Positions 1 through 8,684 are shown, counted from the first letter of the stretch. The stretch is DNA of 8,684 bases from a virus (IMGVR_UViG_2909246061_000003:1-8684), one strand, 5' to 3'. Notes: a model not told the origin generated them from the sequence alone. Numbers and translations are program-made.

Positions 1-192
1 TCAGGAGCATTTCTGATTAACACCACCGTTAAGAATCCACCCCTCAACAGCTTCACGAAGGTATGATTTGGGGTGGGTTCTGACTGGCTTCGGAAATCCG
101 TGCCGTTTGGTATAGTTCCAGATTGTCTGACGTGATGAAACACCGAGCTTGTTCATCACTTCTTTCTCAGGAATCAGGCTGGTATCGGTCAT
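1..192 (-). CDS. Excisionase-like small DNA-binding protein (lambda Xis / AlpA-like), 63 aa
   Basis: Complete ORF on the minus strand: ATG at 192-190, TGA at 3-1. GGAG lies about 7 nt upstream of the ATG (revcomp of 201-204). The motif W-x-Y-x3-G-FPKPV-x-Y-x3-V-x-W resembles the winged-helix core of lambda Xis and AlpA-type regulators, from memory. Position at the prophage edge fits int lying further left, off-window. Confidence 0.55.
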   Translation of the reverse strand: MTDTSLIPEKEVMNKLGVSSRQTIWNYTKRHGFPKPVRTHPKSYLREAVEGWILNGGVNQKCS

Positions 193-204
193 CTTAATTC
201 TCCA

Positions 205-231
205 GGCAAAAAGAAACCGCCATCAGGCGGC
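205..231 (-). terminator. Intrinsic terminator-like hairpin between the 55-aa ORF and the excisionase-like gene
   Basis: Minus-strand reading: stem CCGCC, loop TGAT, stem GGCGG, then TTTCTTTTT (plus 217-221 pairs with 226-230; A-run at plus 208-216). The stop codon of the upstream 55-aa ORF sits in the loop. Confidence 0.45.
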
Positions 232-390
232 TTGGTGTTCTTTCAGTTCTTCAATTCGAATATTGGTTACGTCTGCATGCGCTATCTGCGCCCATATCAT
301 CCAGTGGTTATAGCAGTCGTTGATGCCCTCTGCTTCGATAACTCTGTTGAATGGTTCTCCATTCCATTCACCTGTGACTCGGAAGTGCAT
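223..390 (-). CDS. Hypothetical small protein, 55 aa (below the ORF-track length cutoff)
   Basis: Hand translation of the minus strand: ATG at 390-388, TGA at 225-223, GGAG about 7 nt upstream. Product MHFRVTGEWNGEPFNRVIEAEGINDCYNHWMIWAQIAHADVTNIRIEELKEHQAA. No family recognised. Confidence 0.3.
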   Translation of the reverse strand: MHFRVTGEWNGEPFNRVIEAEGINDCYNHWMIWAQIAHADVTNIRIEELKEHQAA

Positions 391-403
391 TTATCATCTC
401 CAT

Positions 404-427
404 AAAACAAAACTCGCCGTAGCGAGT
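404..427 (-). terminator. Intrinsic terminator-like hairpin (proximal of a tandem pair)
   Basis: Plus 412-417 ACTCGC pairs with 422-427 GCGAGT, loop CGTA. On the minus strand the hairpin is followed by TTTTGTTTT. Confidence 0.45.
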
Positions 428-440
428 TCAGATAAAAGAA

Positions 441-459
441 AACCCGCACTCGGCGGGTT
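441..459 (-). terminator. Intrinsic terminator-like hairpin (distal of a tandem pair)
   Basis: Plus 441-447 AACCCGC pairs with 453-459 GCGGGTT, loop ACTCG. On the minus strand the 7-bp GC-rich stem is followed by TTTTCTTTTAT. Confidence 0.5.
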
Positions 460-479
460 CGCATTCGTTCAAATTGCGT

Positions 480-578
480 TTACTTCTTGGCGTTCTGTTC
501 ATCCATATCGATATACCATGGGTTGCTTCCCTTGGGCATGTTTAACGACTGCTCGCGATAGTATCTGATGCGCTCCAT
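480..578 (-). CDS. Possible cIII-like micro-ORF, 32 aa (very tentative)
   Basis: Hand translation: ATG 578-576, TAA 482-480. Product MERIRYYREQSLNMPKGSNPWYIDMDEQNAKK. Loose resemblance to the ERI...LN.PG.PKNGSN stretch of lambda/P22 cIII from memory. No convincing SD. Lies in the leftward operon where cIII would be expected. Confidence 0.2.
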   Translation of the reverse strand: MERIRYYREQSLNMPKGSNPWYIDMDEQNAKK

Positions 579-738
579 GAAATACTCGCGTGAGTGCTCA
601 GGTTGCTCTCATGATACCTGCTCAGTGATAACAGGTATGTTAAGGCGCTCTCTGTACTCCATGCCTGATGCTGCAAGGTCAACGTTTACCTTGTTCTGTT
701 TTTCTTTCGATTTCTCGGCGATGTTATGCCTGACATTG

Positions 739-981
739 TCAACCCGCCTCCTTCTGAACATAACGGTTATAAATCAGTCCCTGAGGGCCATAAGGAAGCG
801 GGATGTGCAACTCCTCTGGTTCAGAAACTATCCATTCTCCGGCCATCTCCGCTGGAGAGGTAATGATAAGTTGTTTGCTAATAAAAGGACCACTCCTCTC
901 AACAACAAGCTTACCATCTTCATTAATAAAAGCTTGGATGTCAGGTGTGCTTCCACACTTGGTGATGCAGCGTTTGAACAT
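739..981 (-). CDS. Hypothetical protein, 80 aa (ORF-track frame 739..1023; internal ATG with SD preferred)
   Basis: Minus-strand ORF. The ATG at 981-979 is preceded by GGGGGA at about 6 nt; the upstream ATG at 1023 has no SD. Product begins MFKRCITKCGSTPDIQAFINEDGKLVVERSG. No family recognised. Confidence 0.4.
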   Translation of the reverse strand: MFKRCITKCGSTPDIQAFINEDGKLVVERSGPFISKQLIITSPAEMAGEWIVSEPEELHIPLPYGPQGLIYNRYVQKEAG

Positions 982-1107
982 TTTGTGTCCCCCCATTTTA
1001 TGTACGGGGTAATTATAACACATTGAAATATAGTAATATTTGACGTAGATTTCTTTTGATCTATAAGCGATTTTTTAATGCTTTTAAGTTATAAATACTT
1101 GTTTTCA

Positions 1108-1524
1108 TCACCCATCTTGCTGCGGTGCTACTATTGAAAAGTGCTCACACCCTTTAGCCCAAATAGTTTTGATAGTTGTCCAACTGACTGGAACCTTGAT
1201 TTCGATTCTCCCGCTACAGTCACAAGTTTCGCAATCATCATCACCAAAGCATTCCGGGCAGCTTATAAACGTAGTTTCTGAAAATTCACCGGATAGCACA
1301 CCCTTAGCGCCGTTCTCGGCTGTTAGTCTCTTCGGCACCATGACCCAACCATCCGGAATTACCGGAGAGTTGCCGGGTTCTTTAATGTGCAAGCGAGGCT
1401 CACCATCTTTTGGCTCAGGCCACTGGCGCTCCATGTTGATCTTCAATTTATCTTCCATAGCAGCGGTAATTTCAGCATCGCTGATGCCAGCACGGCGCTG
1501 TGCATCCCACAACAGGAAATGCAT
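1108..1524 (-). CDS. Hypothetical Cys-rich protein, 138 aa, possibly the 3' remnant of a longer gene
   Basis: Minus-strand ORF with protein-like composition, whereas the overlapping plus ORF 1169..1558 is Ser/Leu-rich and starts on TTG. C-terminal CPEC-x6-CETCDC cluster suggests metal binding. No SD before the ATG at 1524. The frame is open upstream only to a stop at 1557-1555, right at the junction where lambda-like sequence begins. Confidence 0.4.
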   Translation of the reverse strand: MHFLLWDAQRRAGISDAEITAAMEDKLKINMERQWPEPKDGEPRLHIKEPGNSPVIPDGWVMVPKRLTAENGAKGVLSGEFSETTFISCPECFGDDDCETCDCSGRIEIKVPVSWTTIKTIWAKGCEHFSIVAPQQDG

Positions 1525-1566
1525 ACAGTACGGAACTAAACGCGGAAAAGCCGCTTAAGACATTCC

Positions 1567-1598
1567 CGCTCTTACACATCCCAGCCCTGAAAAAGGGC
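1567..1598 (+). promoter_or_regulatory. nutR-like N-utilisation site: boxA CGCTCTTAC (1567-1575) and boxB GCCCTGAAAAAGGGC (1584-1598)
   Basis: Seen directly. Matches lambda nutR boxA/boxB as I recall them, with about one mismatch in the spacer. The following leader down to the cII ATG also looks lambda-like. Confidence 0.8.
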
Positions 1599-1677
1599 AT
1601 CAAATTAAACCACACCTATGGTGTATGCATTTATTTGCATACATTCAATCAATTGTTATCTAAGGAAATACTTACAT

Positions 1678-1956
1678 ATGCAACTTACAAGTACTCGCAA
1701 GAAAGCGAATGCAATTACAAGCAACATCCTGAATCGAATTGCTGTACGTGGTCAGCGAAAGGTTGCCGACGCGTTAGGGGTTAATGAATCGCAAATTTCG
1801 CGATGGAAAGACAGCTTCATCCCCAAAATGGGAATGCTTCTGGCTGTTCTTGAATGGGGTGTTGAAGACGAGGAGTTGGCGGAACTGGCTAAGCAAGTAG
1901 CCAGAATGCTGACAAAAGAAAAAGCCCCGAAGAACGGCGAATTCTTCGAGGCCTGA
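1678..1956 (+). CDS. cII: Transcriptional activator CII homologue, 92 aa
   Basis: The stretch SQISRWK...IPK..MLLAVLEWGV.D...A.LA.QVA..LT..K.P is collinear with lambda CII. ATG at 1678 is preceded by AAGGAAA. The ORF-track start at 1618 is an upstream non-ATG extension and is not used. The N-terminal 25 residues differ from lambda while the leader matches, indicating a mosaic. Confidence 0.85.
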   Translation: MQLTSTRKKANAITSNILNRIAVRGQRKVADALGVNESQISRWKDSFIPKMGMLLAVLEWGVEDEELAELAKQVARMLTKEKAPKNGEFFEA

Positions 1957-1990
1957 TGTAGAAAGACTGGATCAATCCACAGGAGTAATT

Positions 1991-2152
1991 ATGACAAAAC
2001 GTCGTAAGAAATACCAGGAAAAAGAAGAGATTCGACACCCTGATTCACCTGAGGGATTAGTGGTAGCCGCAGCAAATAACAGGGCGTTCGCAGAACGCCT
2101 TGTTGGTGTTTACAGACTAGCCAAAGCAGGAGTGAAACATGGGCGTCGTTAA
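1991..2152 (+). CDS. Small basic ORF, 53 aa, using a lambda-O-like RBS and start context
   Basis: AGGAG at 1981-1985, then ATG at 1991. Product MTKRRKKYQEKEEIRHPDSPEGLVVAAANNRAFAERLVGVYRLAKAGVKHGRR. Overlaps the O-like start by 14 nt. Could be a real small gene or a by-product of a recombination junction. Confidence 0.3.
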   Translation: MTKRRKKYQEKEEIRHPDSPEGLVVAAANNRAFAERLVGVYRLAKAGVKHGRR

Positions 2153-2936
2153 GTTAGCTGATTACAGGCCTCAACTGGAGGTCGTGGAGCATCGCGTGGC
2201 AGATACCGAAGATGGTTTCATGCGCATTGCTAACGAGATTACCGACAGTCTGCTGATGGCTGATTTAACCGTCCGGCAGTTGAAGGTGATGCTCGCTATC
2301 ATGCGCAAGACATACGGATTCAATAAGCCGATGGATCGACTCACAAACACGCAGATAGCAGCCATGACAGGTATTCATCACACTCATGTTTGCGCTGCCA
2401 AGCGCCAGCTTATCGAGCGTAAATTCCTCATTGCTGATGGCGTGAAAATCGGAGTGAACAAGGTGGTTTCTCAGTGGATTAGCCAGGACAGCTTAACATT
2501 AGCTAAAACAGCTAATAAAACATTAGCCAAGTCGGCTAATGGGTATAAGCCAAGTCAGCTAAACACAAAAGACAATATACAAAAGACAATAAATACAAAT
2601 ACCCCCTTACCCCCTAACGGGGGCGGCGATGGGCAGGTTAAACCTGAACGTCGCAAGGCAGAACGAATCGACTACGAATCCTTCCTGAACGCCTACAACA
2701 CCGAAGTCGGTGACAGACTGCCACACGCTGTTGCGGTCAACGAGAAACGCAAACGCCGCCTGAAGAAAATCATCCCGCAACTGAAAACGCCAAACGTGGA
2801 CGGTTTCAGAGCGTATGTCAGGGCGTTTGTGCATCAGGCCAAGCCGTTTTACTTCGGAGACAACGACACGGGCTGGACGGCCGATTTTGATTACCTGCTG
2901 AGGGAAGACTCGTTAACGGGAGTTCGGGAAGCGTAG
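2139..2936 (+). CDS. Replication initiator, lambda O-like N-terminal domain, 265 aa
   Basis: AGGAG at 2128-2132, ATG at 2139, in-frame stop immediately upstream. N-terminal half is collinear with lambda O (RVAD.EDG...L...L..ADLT.RQ.KV.LAI.RKTYG.NKPMDR.T..Q). C-terminal half is not recognisably lambda O. Internal iteron-like repeats are listed separately. Confidence 0.8.
   Translation: MGVVKLADYRPQLEVVEHRVADTEDGFMRIANEITDSLLMADLTVRQLKVMLAIMRKTYGFNKPMDRLTNTQIAAMTGIHHTHVCAAKRQLIERKFLIADGVKIGVNKVVSQWISQDSLTLAKTANKTLAKSANGYKPSQLNTKDNIQKTINTNTPLPPNGGGDGQVKPERRKAERIDYESFLNAYNTEVGDRLPHAVAVNEKRKRRLKKIIPQLKTPNVDGFRAYVRAFVHQAKPFYFGDNDTGWTADFDYLLREDSLTGVREA
2477..2603 (+). repeat. Origin-like array inside the O-like gene: four iteron-like repeats followed by an AT-rich tract
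   Basis: Repeats of about 21-24 bp, each with internal dyad ATTAGC...GCTAAT: 2477-2497, 2497-2520, 2521-2544, 2545-2568. Then an A/T-rich tract to about 2603 (AAAAGACAATATACAAAAGACAATAAATACAAATAC). Same architecture as ori-lambda inside O. Confidence 0.5.
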
Positions 2937-2962
2937 CTAAATTTCATTCGCCAAAAAGCCCG

Positions 2963-3541
2963 ATGATGAGCGACTCACCACGGGCTACGGCTTCTGACTC
3001 TCTTTCCGGTACTGATGTGATGGCTGCTATGGGGATGGCGCAATCACAAGCCGGATTCGGTATGGCTGCATTCTGTGGTAAGCACGAACTCAGCCAGAAC
3101 GACAAACAAAAGGCTATCAACTATCTGATGCAATTTGCACACAAGGTATCGGGGAAATACCGTGGTGTGGCAAAGATCGAAGGAAATACTAAGGCAAAGG
3201 TACTGCAAGTGCTCGCAACATTCGCTTATGCGGATTATTGCCGTAGTGCCGCGACGCCGGGGGCAAGATGCAGAGATTGCCACGGTACAGGCCGTGTGGT
3301 TGATATAGCAAAAACAGAGCAGTGGGGGAGAGTTGTTGAGAAAGAGTGCGGAAGATGCAAAGGTGTCGGCTATTCAAGGATGCCAGCAAGCGCCGCATAT
3401 CGCGCTGTAACGATGCTAATTCCAAACCTCACCCAACCCACCTGGTCACGCACTGTTAAGCCGCTGTATGACGCTCTGGTGGTGCAATGCCACAAAGAAG
3501 AGTCAATCGCAGACAACATTTTGAACGCGGTCACACGTTAG
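2963..3541 (+). CDS. Q: Late antiterminator Q, lambda-type, read from the first in-frame ATG (192 aa); native start codon apparently lost
   Basis: Product has the Zn-binding CRDCHGTG...CGRCKGVG module and is collinear with lambda Q as I recall it. The frame is open upstream to 2891 and encodes ...VAKFHSPKSP before the Met-Met at 2963, matching lambda Q residues about 6-15, but no ATG/GTG/TTG or SD is present there. Only 26 bp separate it from the O-like stop. Confidence 0.75.
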   Translation: MMSDSPRATASDSLSGTDVMAAMGMAQSQAGFGMAAFCGKHELSQNDKQKAINYLMQFAHKVSGKYRGVAKIEGNTKAKVLQVLATFAYADYCRSAATPGARCRDCHGTGRVVDIAKTEQWGRVVEKECGRCKGVGYSRMPASAAYRAVTMLIPNLTQPTWSRTVKPLYDALVVQCHKEESIADNILNAVTR

Positions 3542-3583
3542 CAGCATGATTGCCACGGATGGCAACATATTAACGGCATAATA

Positions 3584-3612
3584 TTGACTTTTTGAATAAA
3601 GTTGGGTAAATT
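3584..3612 (+). promoter_or_regulatory. pR'-like late promoter (-35 TTGACT 3584-3589, 17-bp spacer, -10 TAAATT 3607-3612) with adjacent qut-like region
   Basis: Hexamers and spacing seen directly. The surrounding sequence closely resembles the lambda pR' region from memory, up to about 3640, where similarity ends. Confidence 0.6.
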
Positions 3613-3646
3613 TGACATCAACGATGGATAAATGCACTCGTTAAAT

Positions 3647-3685
3647 AAAGCCCTGAGTTAATAGCTCTGGGCTTTTTGCGTTTTA
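3647..3685 (+). terminator. Intrinsic terminator closing a short leader transcript from the pR'-like promoter
   Basis: Stem 3650-3657 GCCCTGAG pairs with 3665-3672 CTCTGGGC (one T-T mismatch), loop TTAATA, then TTTTTGCGTTTT. Confidence 0.5.
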
Positions 3686-3958
3686 AGCACGGCCTTTCTG
3701 AAAGCACATCAAACCAAATACCAGACAGACAATACCCTCACCTTATAGGGACACTTGCTTCAACAGGAGGGACGGTTAGGACCGCCATCCTATATGGGAC
3801 GACCGCCAATAGAACCACGGCCACGGTAATAGAACTCTTCAGAGATGGCACAGTCGCTGCCGGGCATACTTTTACGCTGAGAGATATTTCTTTTGGAGAC
3901 AGCAGGGCTCTAGGGGCTGATTTTGGAGGCTCCTTCGGGAATCTGTATAAGTTCTAAT

Positions 3959-3976
3959 CGGCCGCATCAGCGGCCG
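3959..3976. terminator. All-GC hairpin just past the gtrC stop, a possible operon-end or bidirectional terminator
   Basis: CGGCCGC (3959-3965), loop ATCA, GCGGCCG (3970-3976). A U-rich tract follows on the plus side only (TATCTCTTT). On the minus strand it lies 8 nt after the gtrC stop without a clean T-run. Confidence 0.35.
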
Positions 3977-3983
3977 TATCTCT

Positions 3984-5585
3984 TTACAGATAAGCGACGA
4001 AATAGCCGTCAATTTTCTTTATTTTAAGTTTGTCGCCATAGATGGATAGGGGCTTCTTGAGCCATGTATCGTCTGTGGCGACATATATCTCATTATTCCT
4101 TAGCGTACCCTTAGCCTTAATTTCGGCTATATATCTTTTGTTATTATCTATCGCTGCTTTGTCTGCTCTAGCAAAATACCCAAAATTAAGTTTCATTTTT
4201 TCTGAAGAAGCAAATTCAGCAAATGGGAGCCAATGTCTTAAGCTGAACTCATCGTAATCAGTGGTTATGATAGTGTCCTTCCCTTTGGAGATGACTTCCC
4301 ACTCTTTACTCAACATTTGAGAGCTGTATGGCTTACCAGTATATATCTCTCGAACGGCTTTGAAAAAGTTGCTTTCATCCGCCACTGATATTAATAGAAT
4401 AGGGAGCAAGACATAAGCAGAACTTTTCGAGGTTTTTGCTAAGTATGCCAAAACAATCAACATCAAGATCATCGTCACCGGCCAGAAGAACCGACCAGAA
4501 GAGCGAAAAACGCCACCAACCTTCATGAGAAAGTCATTCATTGGAATTTCAATGAGATTAAATCCATAAAAGTTAATTCGATAAGTTATAGAAACGGCAG
4601 CCAGAACTAAACAGAAGTACAATACAGGAGATTTTATAATTCTCCTGAAATCTATGGACTTTCTTAAAGAGGAGTCTATCAGCATAAACAAAAATAGCGT
4701 GATGATGCCTAATCCTAGATAATTTATACCCTCAAAGTTAGCCTGTTGACTCCCATGACTCAAGATAAGATGTGAGTATCTCTGGTCTCCTGGGTTGAAC
4801 CAGCCGGCAAGATCCATGTTAAGGAATCCGAATCCAGGGTATGGGTCAGAGCCTTTAATAACAAAGTATCCGGTAGCATACATTGCGAGAAATATTAACA
4901 CAGAGTAACACGCGAAAAAGAATGCCGATCTTTTTAAAGATAAACGGTTTGTGTTCAGTTTGTTTAAAATGTCAAATGCAAAAATTAAATACACCATTAT
5001 CAGCAAATATGCATGAATGGTGACTGAGAGAACTAAAATAGCAGCCCATCTTTTAAAGCAAAAAGACCTATTGATATAAAGGTAAAATCCAAAAAGAATT
5101 AGCCACTGAGCGCCTAATGCAAAGTGACCACCGGCACGATTTAAGAATATTGGTGCAATGCAGAAGAAGCATGAACCTATTGCAGAGAATATCTCATCCT
5201 TTGTTAACTTACGAAGAACCAAATACGCAGAAAACGTCATAAGCACAAAGCAAAGATACATCCAAAGCCCGTGATATTGAAATCTGGCGGGGAGAAAGTC
5301 GCTAAAAGGCTTGAATATGAAGGCCATAATTGGGATTGAGTCGGTGTAAACGATAGACCCACCTACACCCATCCCATAGTTATAATTTAGGCCAAGGGGC
5401 CACTGCAACAACGGAGTATTTCGGAAGAAATTCCATCCTGACCAGCTTTGACCAGGATCACCTATCATAAGCCATCCAACTCTTTTGAAGTCCAGCACAT
5501 TCACACCAACATACATAGCAAACATTGATGTCGTGAATATAAACATAAATAAGGACGCTAAAATCCTTTTTTGTGCCTTAGTCAT
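3984..5585 (-). CDS. Serotype-specific O-antigen glucosyltransferase, GtrC-type polytopic membrane protein, 533 aa
   Basis: Third gene of a gtrA-gtrB-gtr(type) operon. The ATG at 5585 overlaps the gtrB stop by 8 nt (ATGACTAA). N-terminal two-thirds has many hydrophobic segments; C-terminal hydrophilic domain of about 130 aa. Markedly AT-rich codon usage compared with neighbours. No close relative recognised from memory. Confidence 0.7.
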
Positions 5586-6501
5586 TGTGTTTATTCCTTA
5601 AGATGTAACGAGGCCTAGCCTTGACTTCAATATATATTCTTCCGATATATTCACCAAGAACGCCAATGCCGATAAGTTGAATCCCGCCCAAGAACAGGAT
5701 TGAAACAAGGAGTGAAGGATATCCTCTCACGGCATTTCCAAATGCAATAGTATCGATGATCATCCAGGCTCCGTAGATAAATGCAAGCCCAGCGACTAGT
5801 AATCCAATATAAGTCCACATACGTAGAGGGAATGTAGAAAAGCTAGTAATCCCTTCTAGAGCTAAATTCCAAAGCTTCCAGCCATTAAACTTTGTGCAAC
5901 CAGCGACTCGCTCAGCTCTGGCGTATTCTACTACATCTGTTTTCCCGCCAACCCAAGACAAAACGCCCTTCATGAACAAGTTTCTTTCTGGCATTAGTTT
6001 GATATTTTCTACCACTTCTCGTGACATTAAACGGAAGTCACCGACGTTCTCTTCAATTTTGGGATTGCTGATTTTATTGTGTAGCTTATAGAACCACTCA
6101 GCTGATTTTCGCTTTAAACGACCGTCAGTAGACCTGTCTGTACGTTTGGCCAGAACCATATCCGCCCCAGCCTGCCACTTCTCAATTAGGTGGGGGATTA
6201 CTTCAATTGGGTCCTGCAGATCTACATCAATCGGAATGACCGCGTCGCCTGTAGCTTGGTCAAGGCCAGCAAACAAAGCCGGTTCCTTTCCGAAGTTACG
6301 CGTGAAGGAGAGAGGAACTACGAGTGGGTCAGCAATGGCAAGCGCGTTAATAATTGATTCTGTAGCGTCTTTGCTACCGTCGTTAATGAAGACTATTTCG
6401 ACTTCATGCTGCTGAAGCCCTTCAAATTCCCGCACGGTTTTATAGAAGATTGGAATTGCTTCCTCTTCATTAAACACAGGAACGACCAGAGAAATTTTCA
6501 T
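5578..6501 (-). CDS. gtrB: Bactoprenol glucosyltransferase GtrB (GT2 family), 307 aa
   Basis: Near-collinear with Shigella/Salmonella phage GtrB from memory ([23 protein letters not shown]...FINDGSKD...DVDLQDP...). ATG at 6501 overlaps the gtrA stop (ATGA). Confidence 0.9.
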
Positions 6502-6860
6502 TTCACATCCCTAAAGACAATGAACTTTGAATAAATAAACCCGCACACCAGACTGATGGCGGAGAACAGAATTAAGGTGATGATTGGTGCCAGACCAGAT
6601 TTATCCGCCGCCCAACCCACAGCTGCGCTAAGCGTCCCCATAAAGCCGACGTAAAGCATGTATCGCATGGTTGTTGTGGATGACTTAAACGTGAATCTGG
6701 CATTTGCGAAGAAGCTAAATGACACAGCCACAACGAACCCGGCAAAGTTGCCAAGGGCCTGTCCTGTATGGAATGCATAGATGCAAATTGCGAACACTAC
6801 CCAGTGAATGAGCGTGTTAATGACACCTATCGATGTGTACTTGGCGAATAACTTTAACAT
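6498..6860 (-). CDS. gtrA: Bactoprenol-linked glucose translocase (flippase) GtrA, 120 aa
   Basis: From the internal ATG at 6860 the product [23 protein letters not shown]... matches GtrA at its usual 120-aa length. The ORF-track start at 6923 is a GTG extension and is not used. Confidence 0.85.
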
Positions 6861-6936
6861 TATAGAAATCAGTGAATTCGGAAAGGTCTGAAGTGTAGCA
6901 CCACAAACGCTATTGATCGACACCGCCGATCAGTAC

Positions 6937-6950
6937 TACTGTATTAATAT
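6937..6950. promoter_or_regulatory. Left half of an interrupted LexA (SOS) box: TACTGT plus the ATTAATAT centre
   Basis: Joining 6937-6950 to 8275-8280 (removing the IS and one copy of the duplication) gives TACTGTATTAATATACAGTA, i.e. CTGT-N8-ACAG with an AT-rich centre, close to the TACTG(TA)5CAGTA consensus. Confidence 0.6.
6943..6950. repeat. Target-site duplication ATTAATAT, left copy
   Basis: Identical 8-mer directly abuts both IS termini (6943-6950 and 8267-8274). Confidence 0.75.
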
Positions 6951-8266
6951 GGGTCTTCCCTTGTTGTGGTGGCTGAAGGCATGATAATGGTGTATTTAAT
7001 CGCCAGAGGTCACCGCCATGGACGAAAAGTCCCTCTACGCTCATATTCTCAACCTGTCCGATCCGTGGCAGGTAAAGTCCCTTTCTCTCGATGAAAATGC
7101 CGGTTCTGTTACTGTCACTATTGAGATCGCTGAAAACACCCGGCTAGCCTGTCCGGCCTGCGGTAAATCCTGTTCTGTTCACGATCACCGTCATCGTAAA
7201 TGGCGCCATCTTGATACCTGCCAGTTCACCACTATTGTTGAAGCCGATGTTCCACGAATTATGTGTCCGGAGCATGGCTGTCAGACGTTGCCTGTTCCGT
7301 GGGCTGGCCCCGGAAGCCGGTATACGTTGCTGTTCGAATTGTTCGTTCTCTCATGGCTGAAAATCAGCACCGTTGATGCTGTCAGGAAGCAACTTAAGCT
7401 CAGCTGGAATGCGGTTGACGGCATTATGACCCGGGCAGTTAAGCGAGGTCTTGCCCGGATAAAAAAGCCATTATCCGCCCGTCATATGAATGTGGATGAG
7501 GTCGCCTTTAAAAAAGGACATCGTTACATAACGGTGATCTCCGATCGCGATGGTCGGGCGCTGGCCTTAACGGATGATCGCGGCACAGAGAGTCTTGCCG
7601 GCTATCTTCGCACACTCACTGATGGGCAGTTGCTGGCTATCAAAACGCTCTCAATGGACATGAACGCGGGCTATATAAGAGCAGCGCGCATCCACTTACC
7701 CAGCGCGGTTGAGAAAATCGCCTTTGACCGCTTCCATGTGGCGAAGCAACTGGGCGAGGTAGTTGATAAAACCCGTCAGAATGAACATCCGCACCTCCCT
7801 GTTGAAAGCCGACGCCAGGCAAAAGGAACCCGCTTCCTGTGGCAGTACAGTGATAAGTGGATGACTGAATCCCGGCAGGAAAAGCTGATGTGGCTGCGTG
7901 CACAGATGAAGCTGACGAGCCAGTGCTGGGCGCTGAAAGAGCTGGCAAAGGATATCTGGAACAGGCCATGGAGCGAGGAAAGGCGGAGTGACTGGCAGAG
8001 ATGGCTGGCGCTGGCGGCTAACAGTGACGTTCCCATGATGAAAAATGCTGCGAAAACGATAGGAAAAAGGCTGTACGGGATCCTGAATGCGATGCGACAC
8101 AGTGTCTCAAACGGAAATGCGGAGGCACTTAACAGCAAGATAAGGTTGCTGAGAATAAAAGCCAGGGGATACCGAAACCGGGAGCGCTTTAAACTGGGAG
8201 TGATGTTCCACTACGGTAAGCTGAATATGGAGTTCTGAGCCTTCCCACCATGATCGGGGAAGACCC
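6951..8266 (+). mobile_element. ISL3-family insertion sequence, about 1.3 kb, with imperfect terminal inverted repeats
   Basis: Left end GGGTCTTCCC...GGTGG..GAAGGC (from 6951) mirrors the reverse complement of the right end (...GCCTTCCCACC...GGGGAAGACCC ending at 8266). Contains a single transposase ORF and is flanked by an 8-bp direct repeat. Confidence 0.75.
7018..8238 (+). CDS. ISL3-family transposase, 406 aa
   Basis: ATG at 7018. N-terminal Cys/His zinc-ribbon (CPACG...C..H.H) followed by a long catalytic region, typical of ISL3-type transposases from memory. The three antisense ORFs within it are taken as artefacts. Confidence 0.85.
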   Translation: MDEKSLYAHILNLSDPWQVKSLSLDENAGSVTVTIEIAENTRLACPACGKSCSVHDHRHRKWRHLDTCQFTTIVEADVPRIMCPEHGCQTLPVPWAGPGSRYTLLFELFVLSWLKISTVDAVRKQLKLSWNAVDGIMTRAVKRGLARIKKPLSARHMNVDEVAFKKGHRYITVISDRDGRALALTDDRGTESLAGYLRTLTDGQLLAIKTLSMDMNAGYIRAARIHLPSAVEKIAFDRFHVAKQLGEVVDKTRQNEHPHLPVESRRQAKGTRFLWQYSDKWMTESRQEKLMWLRAQMKLTSQCWALKELAKDIWNRPWSEERRSDWQRWLALAANSDVPMMKNAAKTIGKRLYGILNAMRHSVSNGNAEALNSKIRLLRIKARGYRNRERFKLGVMFHYGKLNMEF

Positions 8267-8274
8267 ATTAATAT
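8267..8274. repeat. Target-site duplication ATTAATAT, right copy
   Basis: See left copy. Confidence 0.75.
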
Positions 8275-8280
8275 ACAGTA
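8267..8280. promoter_or_regulatory. Right half of the interrupted LexA box: ATTAATAT centre plus ACAGTA
   Basis: See left half. Sits about 18 nt upstream of the RBS/ATG of the UmuD'-like gene; TAATAT within it could serve as a -10. Confidence 0.6.
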
Positions 8281-8297
8281 ACTATCGGAGGTGAGTT

Positions 8298-8684
8298 ATG
8301 GGATTCCCGAGTCCGGCTCAAGACTATGTTGAAGAGCGCGTATTGCTCGACAAGCGCATCATAAGCAGACCAGCGGCCACGTATTTCATGAGAGCGGGTG
8401 CAACGCATCACCGCGAAGGCATCCTGAATGGTGCTCTTCTGGTAGTGGATGCATCGCTATCACCATGTGACGGCTCGTTGCTGGTTTGCAGAATGGAAGG
8501 TGAGCTGAGGATTAAGCGATATCGCAAATCACCAAAGCCTCACCTGGAGGATTTGCAGACGGGAAGGCGTGAGGAGATACCGGCACACGATGACGGCACG
8601 AGTCCGGATGCGATATTTGGTGTGATCACCTACATCATAAACGATGCACGCTCTGGCGAGTTTGATGATTGTCTGATTATGTGA
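8298..8684 (+). CDS. UmuD'-like protein (peptidase S24 fold, natively lacking the N-terminal arm; phage P1 HumD-like), 128 aa
   Basis: GGAGGTGA RBS, ATG at 8298, in-frame stop at 8292-8294. Product begins MGFPSPAQDY, which corresponds to the GFPSPA segment immediately after the RecA-mediated cleavage site of UmuD/MucA. The rest is collinear with UmuD/MucA from memory, including the conserved Lys (RIKRY), but the GDSM Ser motif is replaced by GATHH. TGA ends exactly at the window edge. Confidence 0.75.
   Translation: MGFPSPAQDYVEERVLLDKRIISRPAATYFMRAGATHHREGILNGALLVVDASLSPCDGSLLVCRMEGELRIKRYRKSPKPHLEDLQTGRREEIPAHDDGTSPDAIFGVITYIINDARSGEFDDCLIM

Follow-up and report, generated by a model that had tools for sequence, protein, structure and literature searches.

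A HumD-family gene at the end of a degraded lambdoid prophage, with its SOS box split by an ISKox3 element

The window analysed here, i.e., the whole stretch of 8,684 nucleotides of viral DNA, contains two segments that are 100% identical to a single E. coli locus (L005), with an insertion sequence between them. Positions 1-6950 correspond to L005:3028-9977, and positions 8267-8684 to L005:9970-10387. The last 418 bases are also 100% identical in the ten loci that encode the identical terminal protein (L002-L011). In each of these ten contexts the gene order is gtrC-gtrB-gtrA on the minus strand, humD on the plus strand, 343 bp, and dacD-sbmC-yeeA. Besides humD and the insertion sequence, the window contains the following genes.

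1-192, minus strand: AlpA/excisionase-like gene, 63 aa
1108-1524, minus strand: ORF of 138 aa
1618-1956: cII
2139-2936: replication gene O
2963-3541: antiterminator Q gene, with gtrC directly after it
3984-6860, minus strand: O-antigen-modification cluster of gtrA (120 aa), gtrB (307 aa) and a gtrC-like gene (533 aa, DUF6311)

Positions 1-3541 are a deletion remnant of the prophage, in which P, nin, lysis and structural genes are all missing; at the same site, related genomes have other remnants, for example tail and baseplate genes or recT. The 138-aa ORF, which contains a CxxC...CxxC pattern, has matches to several PHROG families of unknown function, confined in each case to the C-terminal part of the family, and is probably a truncated early-region gene. 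The gtr cluster is divergent from humD, and the two share an intergenic region of 113 bp in the IS-free allele; both are cargo of the lysogenic-conversion type beside attR.

The prophage is a degraded lambdoid element located in the 5′ end of sbcB, which encodes exonuclease I, and humD is its last gene, between gtrABC and attR. The 30-bp att core was defined by comparison with the empty site of K-12; a search for exact repeats alone gave only a 13-mer. One copy of the core lies at L005:1642-1671, in the 5′ end of sbcB and beside the integrase gene, and the other at L005:10474-10503, 87 bp past the humD stop codon. Repeats of GTACCAAAT are found within these 87 bp, and also adjoining the integrase gene; they look like arm-type sites of the integrase. 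The gene itself, together with its start signals and the residues considered below, is located as follows.

8287-8291, plus strand: Shine-Dalgarno sequence GGAGG, six bases 5′ of the ATG (direct reading; same layout in L005)
8292-8294, plus strand: in-frame TGA immediately 5′ of the start codon (direct reading)
8298-8684, plus strand: humD-family coding sequence, 128 aa and TGA (matches to NF051876, Peptidase_S24 and the UmuD′ structures; RefSeq naming)
8403-8405, plus strand: codon ACG for Thr36, at the position of UmuD Ser60 and LexA Ser119 (profile alignments, MAFFT)
8514-8516, plus strand: codon AAG for Lys73, at the position of UmuD Lys97 (phmmer, MAFFT, profile alignment)
8652-8681, plus strand: C-terminal extension SGEFDDCLIM, with no counterpart in UmuD, whose last residue aligns with Arg118 (alignments)

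The ORF begins with ATG, and its stop codon forms the last three bases of the window. The encoded protein matches the equivalog model NCBIfam NF051876 (HumD family translesion DNA polymerase) with 207.2 bits, against a cutoff of 120, and does so over its full length, with residues 1-128 on profile positions 1-129. The score with the UmuD model, NCBIfam NF007621, is 80.7 bits, which is below the cutoff of 110. Pfam Peptidase_S24 (PF00717) is matched with 31.9 bits (gathering score 23.3); the protein also matches the PHROG family ‘UmuD-like protein’, and the sequences of the UmuD′ structures are recovered with the family profile at E = 7e-26. In tblastn comparisons the protein is 82.8% identical to N15 gp26, 69.8% to P1 HumD, and 62-74% to its homologues in phiKO2, HK140, HK639 and P1-like phage-plasmids. 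An AlphaFold2 model, computed from a family alignment of 45 sequences, is of low confidence (mean pLDDT 51, pTM 0.41). The identical protein (WP_072778263.1) is already named as a HumD family member in a RefSeq E. coli genome, and it is found in 494 blocks of the protein collection; 607 clusters at 90% identity are related to it. The ORF does not arise by chance, with E = 6.6e-62 against the HumD model. Its dN/dS relative to the homologues of N15, HK140 and P1 is 0.06-0.15, except where saturated synonymous sites prevent the computation of this ratio. To judge by these values, humD is a constrained and functional gene of a known family. It is an ordinary, already catalogued prophage member of that family, which has been known since the characterisation of P1 HumD in 1999. 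According to the GenBank record of P1, HumD functionally complements E. coli UmuD′, and a LexA site is annotated 19 bases upstream of the gene; the title of a 1999 article by McLenigan and colleagues states the same functional complementation. Within the family, replacement of UmuD′ and binding to UmuC and to RecA filaments are known for P1 HumD only.

The preliminary description of this DNA had proposed that the ORF starts, with a strong ribosome-binding site and an upstream stop, exactly where UmuD and MucA are cut, and that the product is thus a natively truncated protein of the UmuD′ type, with P1 HumD as precedent. The alignments bear this out. Gly2 pairs with residue 1 of crystallised UmuD′ (1umu_A) and with Gly25 of full-length UmuD (8gmt_B); that is, the start of humD coincides with the Cys24/Gly25 cleavage site of UmuD. 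The in-frame TGA excludes an N-terminal arm or extension, and GGAGG lies six bases before this ATG. Among 123 close HumD relatives aligned with MAFFT, 119 begin with MGFPS. The scissile Ala/Cys-Gly bond of S24 proteins, along with the N-terminal segment that precedes it, is absent, the protein opening with Met1-Gly2 and a stop codon lying just upstream. As for the precedent, both the equivalog-level match and the identity to P1 HumD show that it was correctly chosen.

humD is a solo gene. In L002-L011 its stop codon is followed by non-coding DNA, by the arm-type repeats, by the attR core after 87 bp, and by dacD after 343 bp, and no Y-family polymerase gene lies beside humD in any of these ten contexts. 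The preliminary description had also predicted a umuC-like gene with an overlapping start in the terminal ATGTGA, and this prediction is contradicted by the downstream DNA: with the att core 87 bp past the stop codon and dacD beyond it, ATGTGA is not the start of such a gene. A umuDC-like operon continuing past the window is conceivable by analogy with phage umuD-umuC pairs, such as that of phage PHB10, in which a 139-aa UmuD is directly followed by UmuC. However, the homologues of P1, N15, HK140 and Aeromonas phages are all solo genes, without an adjacent umuC, and if the source of the window matches the ten loci past position 8684, the operon is effectively refuted; we accordingly give it practically no credence. 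Nor does the missing polymerase speak against the UmuD′ reading, as had been supposed, for the HumD family consists of solo genes, in P1 and N15 likewise; solo status is a trait of the family, and not a gap in the data. Because humD is alone both in this prophage and in the phage homologues, its polymerase partner would have to be the UmuC of the host.

Apparent traces of the gene occur in other phages. The records of Stx1- and Stx2-converting phages (H53-H58, including phage 2851) contain unannotated fragments, 75% identical to HumD residues 73-124, matching no other part of the protein and placed in the last ~250 bases of each record, and Sf101, mEp234 and EC.P3 give similar partial matches to residues 45-124. 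These fragments appear to be what is left of humD next to the att site. In HK140 (L018:1910-2890), a dinI homologue on the opposite strand and a small ORF lie ahead of the humD-like gene, and the stop codon of the small ORF overlaps the start of humD; this moron region thus carries dinI as a second cargo gene related to the SOS response.

In place of the UmuD motif ASGDSMIDGGI, the window protein has AGATHHREGI, which is shorter by one residue, and the placement of the gap decides which residue is aligned with the nucleophile of UmuD: a gap before the Gly puts Thr36 on Ser60, and a gap after the motif puts His37 there. His37 results from pairwise phmmer comparison with PDB sequences. We dropped this alternative in favour of Thr36, because the other alignments agree on the latter. 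Specifically, a profile of 47 family members places Thr36 on Ser60 when aligned with UmuD′ and, independently, on Ser119 when aligned with LexA, and the same residue occupies the nucleophile column both in MAFFT alignments that include P1 HumD and in an hmmsearch alignment of 150 representatives. With this gap placement, the D-S of the P1 HumD motif, ADSHH, falls exactly on the D-S of UmuD. Profile alignment, which the preliminary description had recommended for locating the two catalytic residues, therefore equates Thr36 with Ser60 and Lys73 with Lys97.

The Ser nucleophile of the Peptidase S24 motif G-x-S-M is not present in the window protein, which has G-A-T-H; the Lys general base is present, as Lys73. 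In the column of Thr36, the 123 close relatives have Thr in 102 cases, Ser in 18 and Ala in 3, i.e., a hydroxyl in 120 of 123. Position 73 is Lys in 119 of them, and invariant in the family alignment (A1). The view that the Ser-Lys dyad is half-degenerate therefore holds in part: the Ser is replaced and the Lys kept, but a hydroxyl is retained in Thr36, and P1 HumD keeps its Ser. For the window copy, as aligned here, ‘degenerate’ amounts to a change from Ser to Thr, with the hydroxyl not lost.

The pair is far more eroded in distant relatives. The family profile was run against 1.84 billion representatives, and the 150 best were aligned by hmmsearch; those classed as truncated begin at the position of the cleavage site and have a length of 115 aa or more. 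Ser and Lys are both retained in 3 of 32 truncated representatives, versus 40 of 61 relatives with an N-terminal arm; the latter figure is an underestimate, as several G-[DE]-S-M motifs are misaligned by one column, and all these counts are approximate, since the library includes fragments and frameshifted metagenomic ORFs. In the truncated representatives the Lys position is frequently Arg, Cys or Val. At the Ser column, the protein of Aeromonas phage pAEv1818 has Gln or Ala and that of Hafnia phage yong1 has Tyr or Cys, depending on the gap, with Arg replacing Lys in both; another relative, P0125, has Pro and Arg at the two positions. The proteins of pAEv1818 and yong1 keep the MG[FM]P start, and their genes have a LexA box 33-39 bases upstream. 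The loss of the pair among truncated relatives supports relaxed selection on the active site once the product is pre-cut, in line with the earlier suggestion that a pre-cut protein no longer needs it. The window copy would then represent a mild stage of this decay, with Thr for Ser and Lys retained, compared with the more eroded truncated relatives at greater distance.

Thr and Lys together could in principle still be catalytic. If so, HumD would be an active S24-type peptidase, in which Thr36 and Lys73 cleave in trans, acting for example on UmuD in a heterodimer, on LexA, or on a phage repressor. Intermolecular cleavage by UmuD-like proteins is established, P1 HumD retains the Ser, and the near-constancy of the hydroxyl and of Lys73 among close relatives speaks for such an enzyme. 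That conservation, however, is no higher than the mean column identity, which is 79%, and the pair is gone at ~40% identity, i.e., in pAEv1818, yong1 and P0125; of the 32 truncated representatives, only 3 have Ser together with Lys. Moreover, we know of no Ser-Lys peptidase that uses a Thr nucleophile. We thus regard trans-acting proteolysis as very improbable, and favour a pair that would be dispensable, with nothing left to cleave.

Upstream of humD, the window differs from L005 by an insertion sequence, whose boundaries and target site are as follows.

6913-6918, plus strand: candidate -35 element TTGATC, 18 bases upstream of TACTGT (proposed on sequence only; below the promoter-scan threshold)
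6937-6942, plus strand: left half-site TACTGT of the split LexA box, and likely the native -10 element of humD (intact box of L005; analogy with N15)
6943-6950: left copy of the target-site duplication, ATTAATAT, 8 bp (flanks overlap by 8 bp relative to L005)
6951-8266, plus strand: ISKox3 (ISL3 family), 1316 bp, with imperfect terminal inverted repeats GGGTCTTCCC.../...GGGAAGACCC (annotated copies; absent from L005)
7018-8238, plus strand: ISKox3 transposase gene, 406 aa, co-oriented with humD (Pfam DDE_Tnp_ISL3, HTH_Tnp_ISL3, Zn_ribbon_ISL3)
8267-8274: right copy of the target-site duplication, ATTAATAT, 8 bp (flanks overlap by 8 bp relative to L005)
8275-8280, plus strand: right half-site ACAGTA, the sole remnant of the box before humD (direct reading; L005)

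Inverted repeats at 6937-6972 and 8245-8280 flank the transposase gene, and the sequence from 6951 to 8266 is 100% identical to full-length copies annotated as ‘ISL3-like element ISKox3 family transposase’. The element is missing from the otherwise identical L005, which provides the empty site, so that the boundaries and the 8-bp duplication are exact. When the target is rejoined, it reads TACTGT-ATTAATAT-ACAGTA, a perfect SOS box, which is found intact in L005 as TACTGTATTAATATACAGTA (L005:9965-9984), 16 bases upstream of the humD start codon. In the window this box is reduced to two half-sites 1.3 kb apart, with ISKox3 in its AT-rich centre. LexA boxes also lie 32-39 bases upstream of the homologues in P1, N15, Aeromonas and Hafnia phages.

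By analogy with N15, in which the arrangement is TTGCAT-17-TACTGT, the native humD promoter would be TTGATC-18-TACTGT, at 6913-6942, with 8 of 12 consensus matches. A scan for the sigma-70 consensus found no plus-strand promoter in the native gtrA-humD intergenic region. The same scan found none at the right end of ISKox3; two plus-strand sites lie inside the element, at chance level. LexA control is expected to be lost in the window copy. The gene is now 1.3 kb from its probable promoter, and its expression would require read-through of the transposase gene. Such read-through is possible, since the two genes are co-oriented and a scan of the window found no terminator-like site between them. 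The exact junction between the element and humD is absent from 185,579 genomes, one for each species, and is not covered by any complete E. coli genome. The sequence alone is compatible with either a silenced or a constitutively expressed humD in the IS-bearing copy.

These data bear on whether, in this genome, humD is a silenced passenger, cut off from its promoter by ISKox3 and making no protein, with an ORF that is still intact because the insertion is recent. The position of the element, between the probable -35/-10 pair and the gene, points in this direction, as do the lack of a consensus promoter at its right end, the absence of the junction from the genomes searched, and the 100% identity between the flanks and IS-free genomes, from which a recent insertion follows. 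On the other hand, the ribosome-binding site of humD is intact, the transposase gene could supply read-through transcripts, and there is a weak promoter-like site within ISKox3 at 8129-8156, although such sites are no more numerous than chance would give. We consider silencing a plausible outcome, while leaning somewhat against it. It is compatible with the identification of the gene as humD.

Taken together, it is highly probable that the gene encodes a prophage HumD, i.e., a ready-made UmuD′ for host UmuC, which is under LexA control when its upstream region is intact, and whose operator has been broken here by ISKox3. The function assigned to the window protein is transferred from P1 HumD, at 70% identity. 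By homology with P1 HumD and UmuD′, HumD would dimerise and bind host UmuC, to form a translesion polymerase resembling Pol V, namely HumD2-UmuC. Self-cleavage stimulated by RecA*, which usually delays the activation of UmuD, would not be needed. With no cleavage step, control in the intact allele would rest on LexA repression through the perfect SOS box. In the window copy, insertion of ISKox3 into the central ATTAATAT of the box would have destroyed this operator.

The C-terminus of HumD has a feature that this reading leaves without a role. HumD proteins extend about ten residues past the end of UmuD, usually with the tail SGEFDDCPVM; the window protein has SGEFDDCLIM, without the Pro. The family consensus is E-F-D-D-x-P-x-hydrophobic-COOH, and the family alignment shows no variation at E121, F122 and D124. 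The tail is better conserved than the Ser-Lys pair: it persists in homologues of ~40% identity that lack both Ser and Lys, as SEWDDLPVI, SEFDDNPCM, GEFDDTPF, FEFHDNLPF and DEFDEIPCI (relatives of this kind include P0123, P0157, L015:2486-2881 and L016:2501-2878). The motif pattern occurs in 10 of the 32 truncated representatives, with several near-variants in addition, and in 0 of the 61 relatives with an N-terminal arm. It resembles the C-terminal tip of SSB, MDFDDDIPF (PMC5872125), and the endings of P0123 and P0157 are EFDDTPF or NLPF. No relevant account of a UmuD-like or phage protein that mimics the SSB tail was found in the literature searched.

These observations could mean that HumD is a modulator of host DNA metabolism, whose tail docks on the proteins that bind the SSB tip, and thereby either recruits the polymerase or competes with SSB. 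The invariant residues, the persistence of the tail after the loss of Ser and Lys, its absence from the 61 relatives with an arm, and the SSB-like endings of P0123 and P0157 would all fit. However, the link to SSB is one of motif resemblance: the last residue of the tail is mostly Met, Ile or Leu, and not Phe, its Pro is shifted by one position, and the window tail, CLIM, has no Pro. Furthermore, the reported complementation of UmuD′ by P1 HumD makes a plain UmuD′ role sufficient. A modulator role of this kind is therefore unlikely in our estimation. We are similarly doubtful of a related proposal, namely that the defining trait of the HumD family is neither the truncated start nor the decayed pair, but the C-terminal tip N-D-x-x-x-x-E-F-D-D-x-P-x-hydrophobic-COOH. 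If it were true, the tail would dock HumD, or HumD2-UmuC, on host proteins recognising the SSB tip, or would compete with SSB, and temperate phages and plasmids could steer translesion synthesis in a way that host UmuD′ cannot.

The identification of a ready-made UmuD′ carries little weight as a finding, as it re-identifies a known family, and the identical protein already has its name in RefSeq. In this respect the preliminary description was essentially right, and only its prediction of a downstream polymerase was wrong. The ISKox3 split of the LexA box and the conserved tail, both of which it had missed, are of modest value. The family as a whole illustrates an evolutionary rule: when a self-cleaving protein comes to be encoded in pre-cleaved form, its catalytic pair drifts. 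An insertion sequence within the SOS operator of a mutagenesis factor could alter the mutability of the strain, and a conserved tail resembling the SSB tip provides a concrete handle on the question of why phages carry a UmuD′ of their own.

Among named systems, P1 HumD (AAQ14073.1) is similar to the window protein in most respects. The two proteins are 129 and 128 aa long, respectively, and 69.8% identical over their full length; both start with MGFPSPA at the cleavage site and have the same type of tail, SGEFDDCPVI in P1, and both are encoded by solo genes without umuC, with a LexA box just upstream, which for the window gene is intact in the IS-free allele. They differ in the catalytic motif, which has Ser in P1 (ADSHH) and Thr in the window (GATHH), and in their setting: the P1 gene lies on a plasmid-prophage beside phd-doc, whereas the window gene is in an integrated lambdoid prophage beside attR, with its operator split by ISKox3. 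The closest homologue from a characterised phage is N15 gp26 (AAC19062.1, annotated as ‘UmuD’), at 82.8% identity. It shares the Thr motif, GATH[HY], and the tail, and has a LexA box 32 bases upstream. Unlike the window gene, it is carried by a linear plasmid-prophage, between a tail-fibre gene and sopB, with no insertion sequence.

The module around HK140 gp028, i.e., the humD-like gene, attP, a 392-aa integrase and a 63-aa HTH protein, is a circular permutation of the prophage order seen here, and the sbcB-integrating int module of HK140 is shared with Stx phage 2851. The HK140 protein is 73.6% identical to that of the window, and its gene differs in three respects: dinI and a small ORF come before it, a LexA box of its own is lacking within 120 bases, and gtrABC is missing from this position. 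Lastly, the window protein is homologous to E. coli UmuD′ (PDB 1UMU, 1AY9, 1I4V) from Gly25 to the C-terminus of UmuD′, with Lys97 conserved, and would share its role as the dimeric accessory subunit of Pol V. UmuD′, however, is the RecA*-stimulated cleavage product of a 139-aa precursor, is encoded in an operon with umuC, and has Ser60, whereas the window protein has Thr36, one residue fewer before the motif, and 10 additional conserved residues at its C-terminus.
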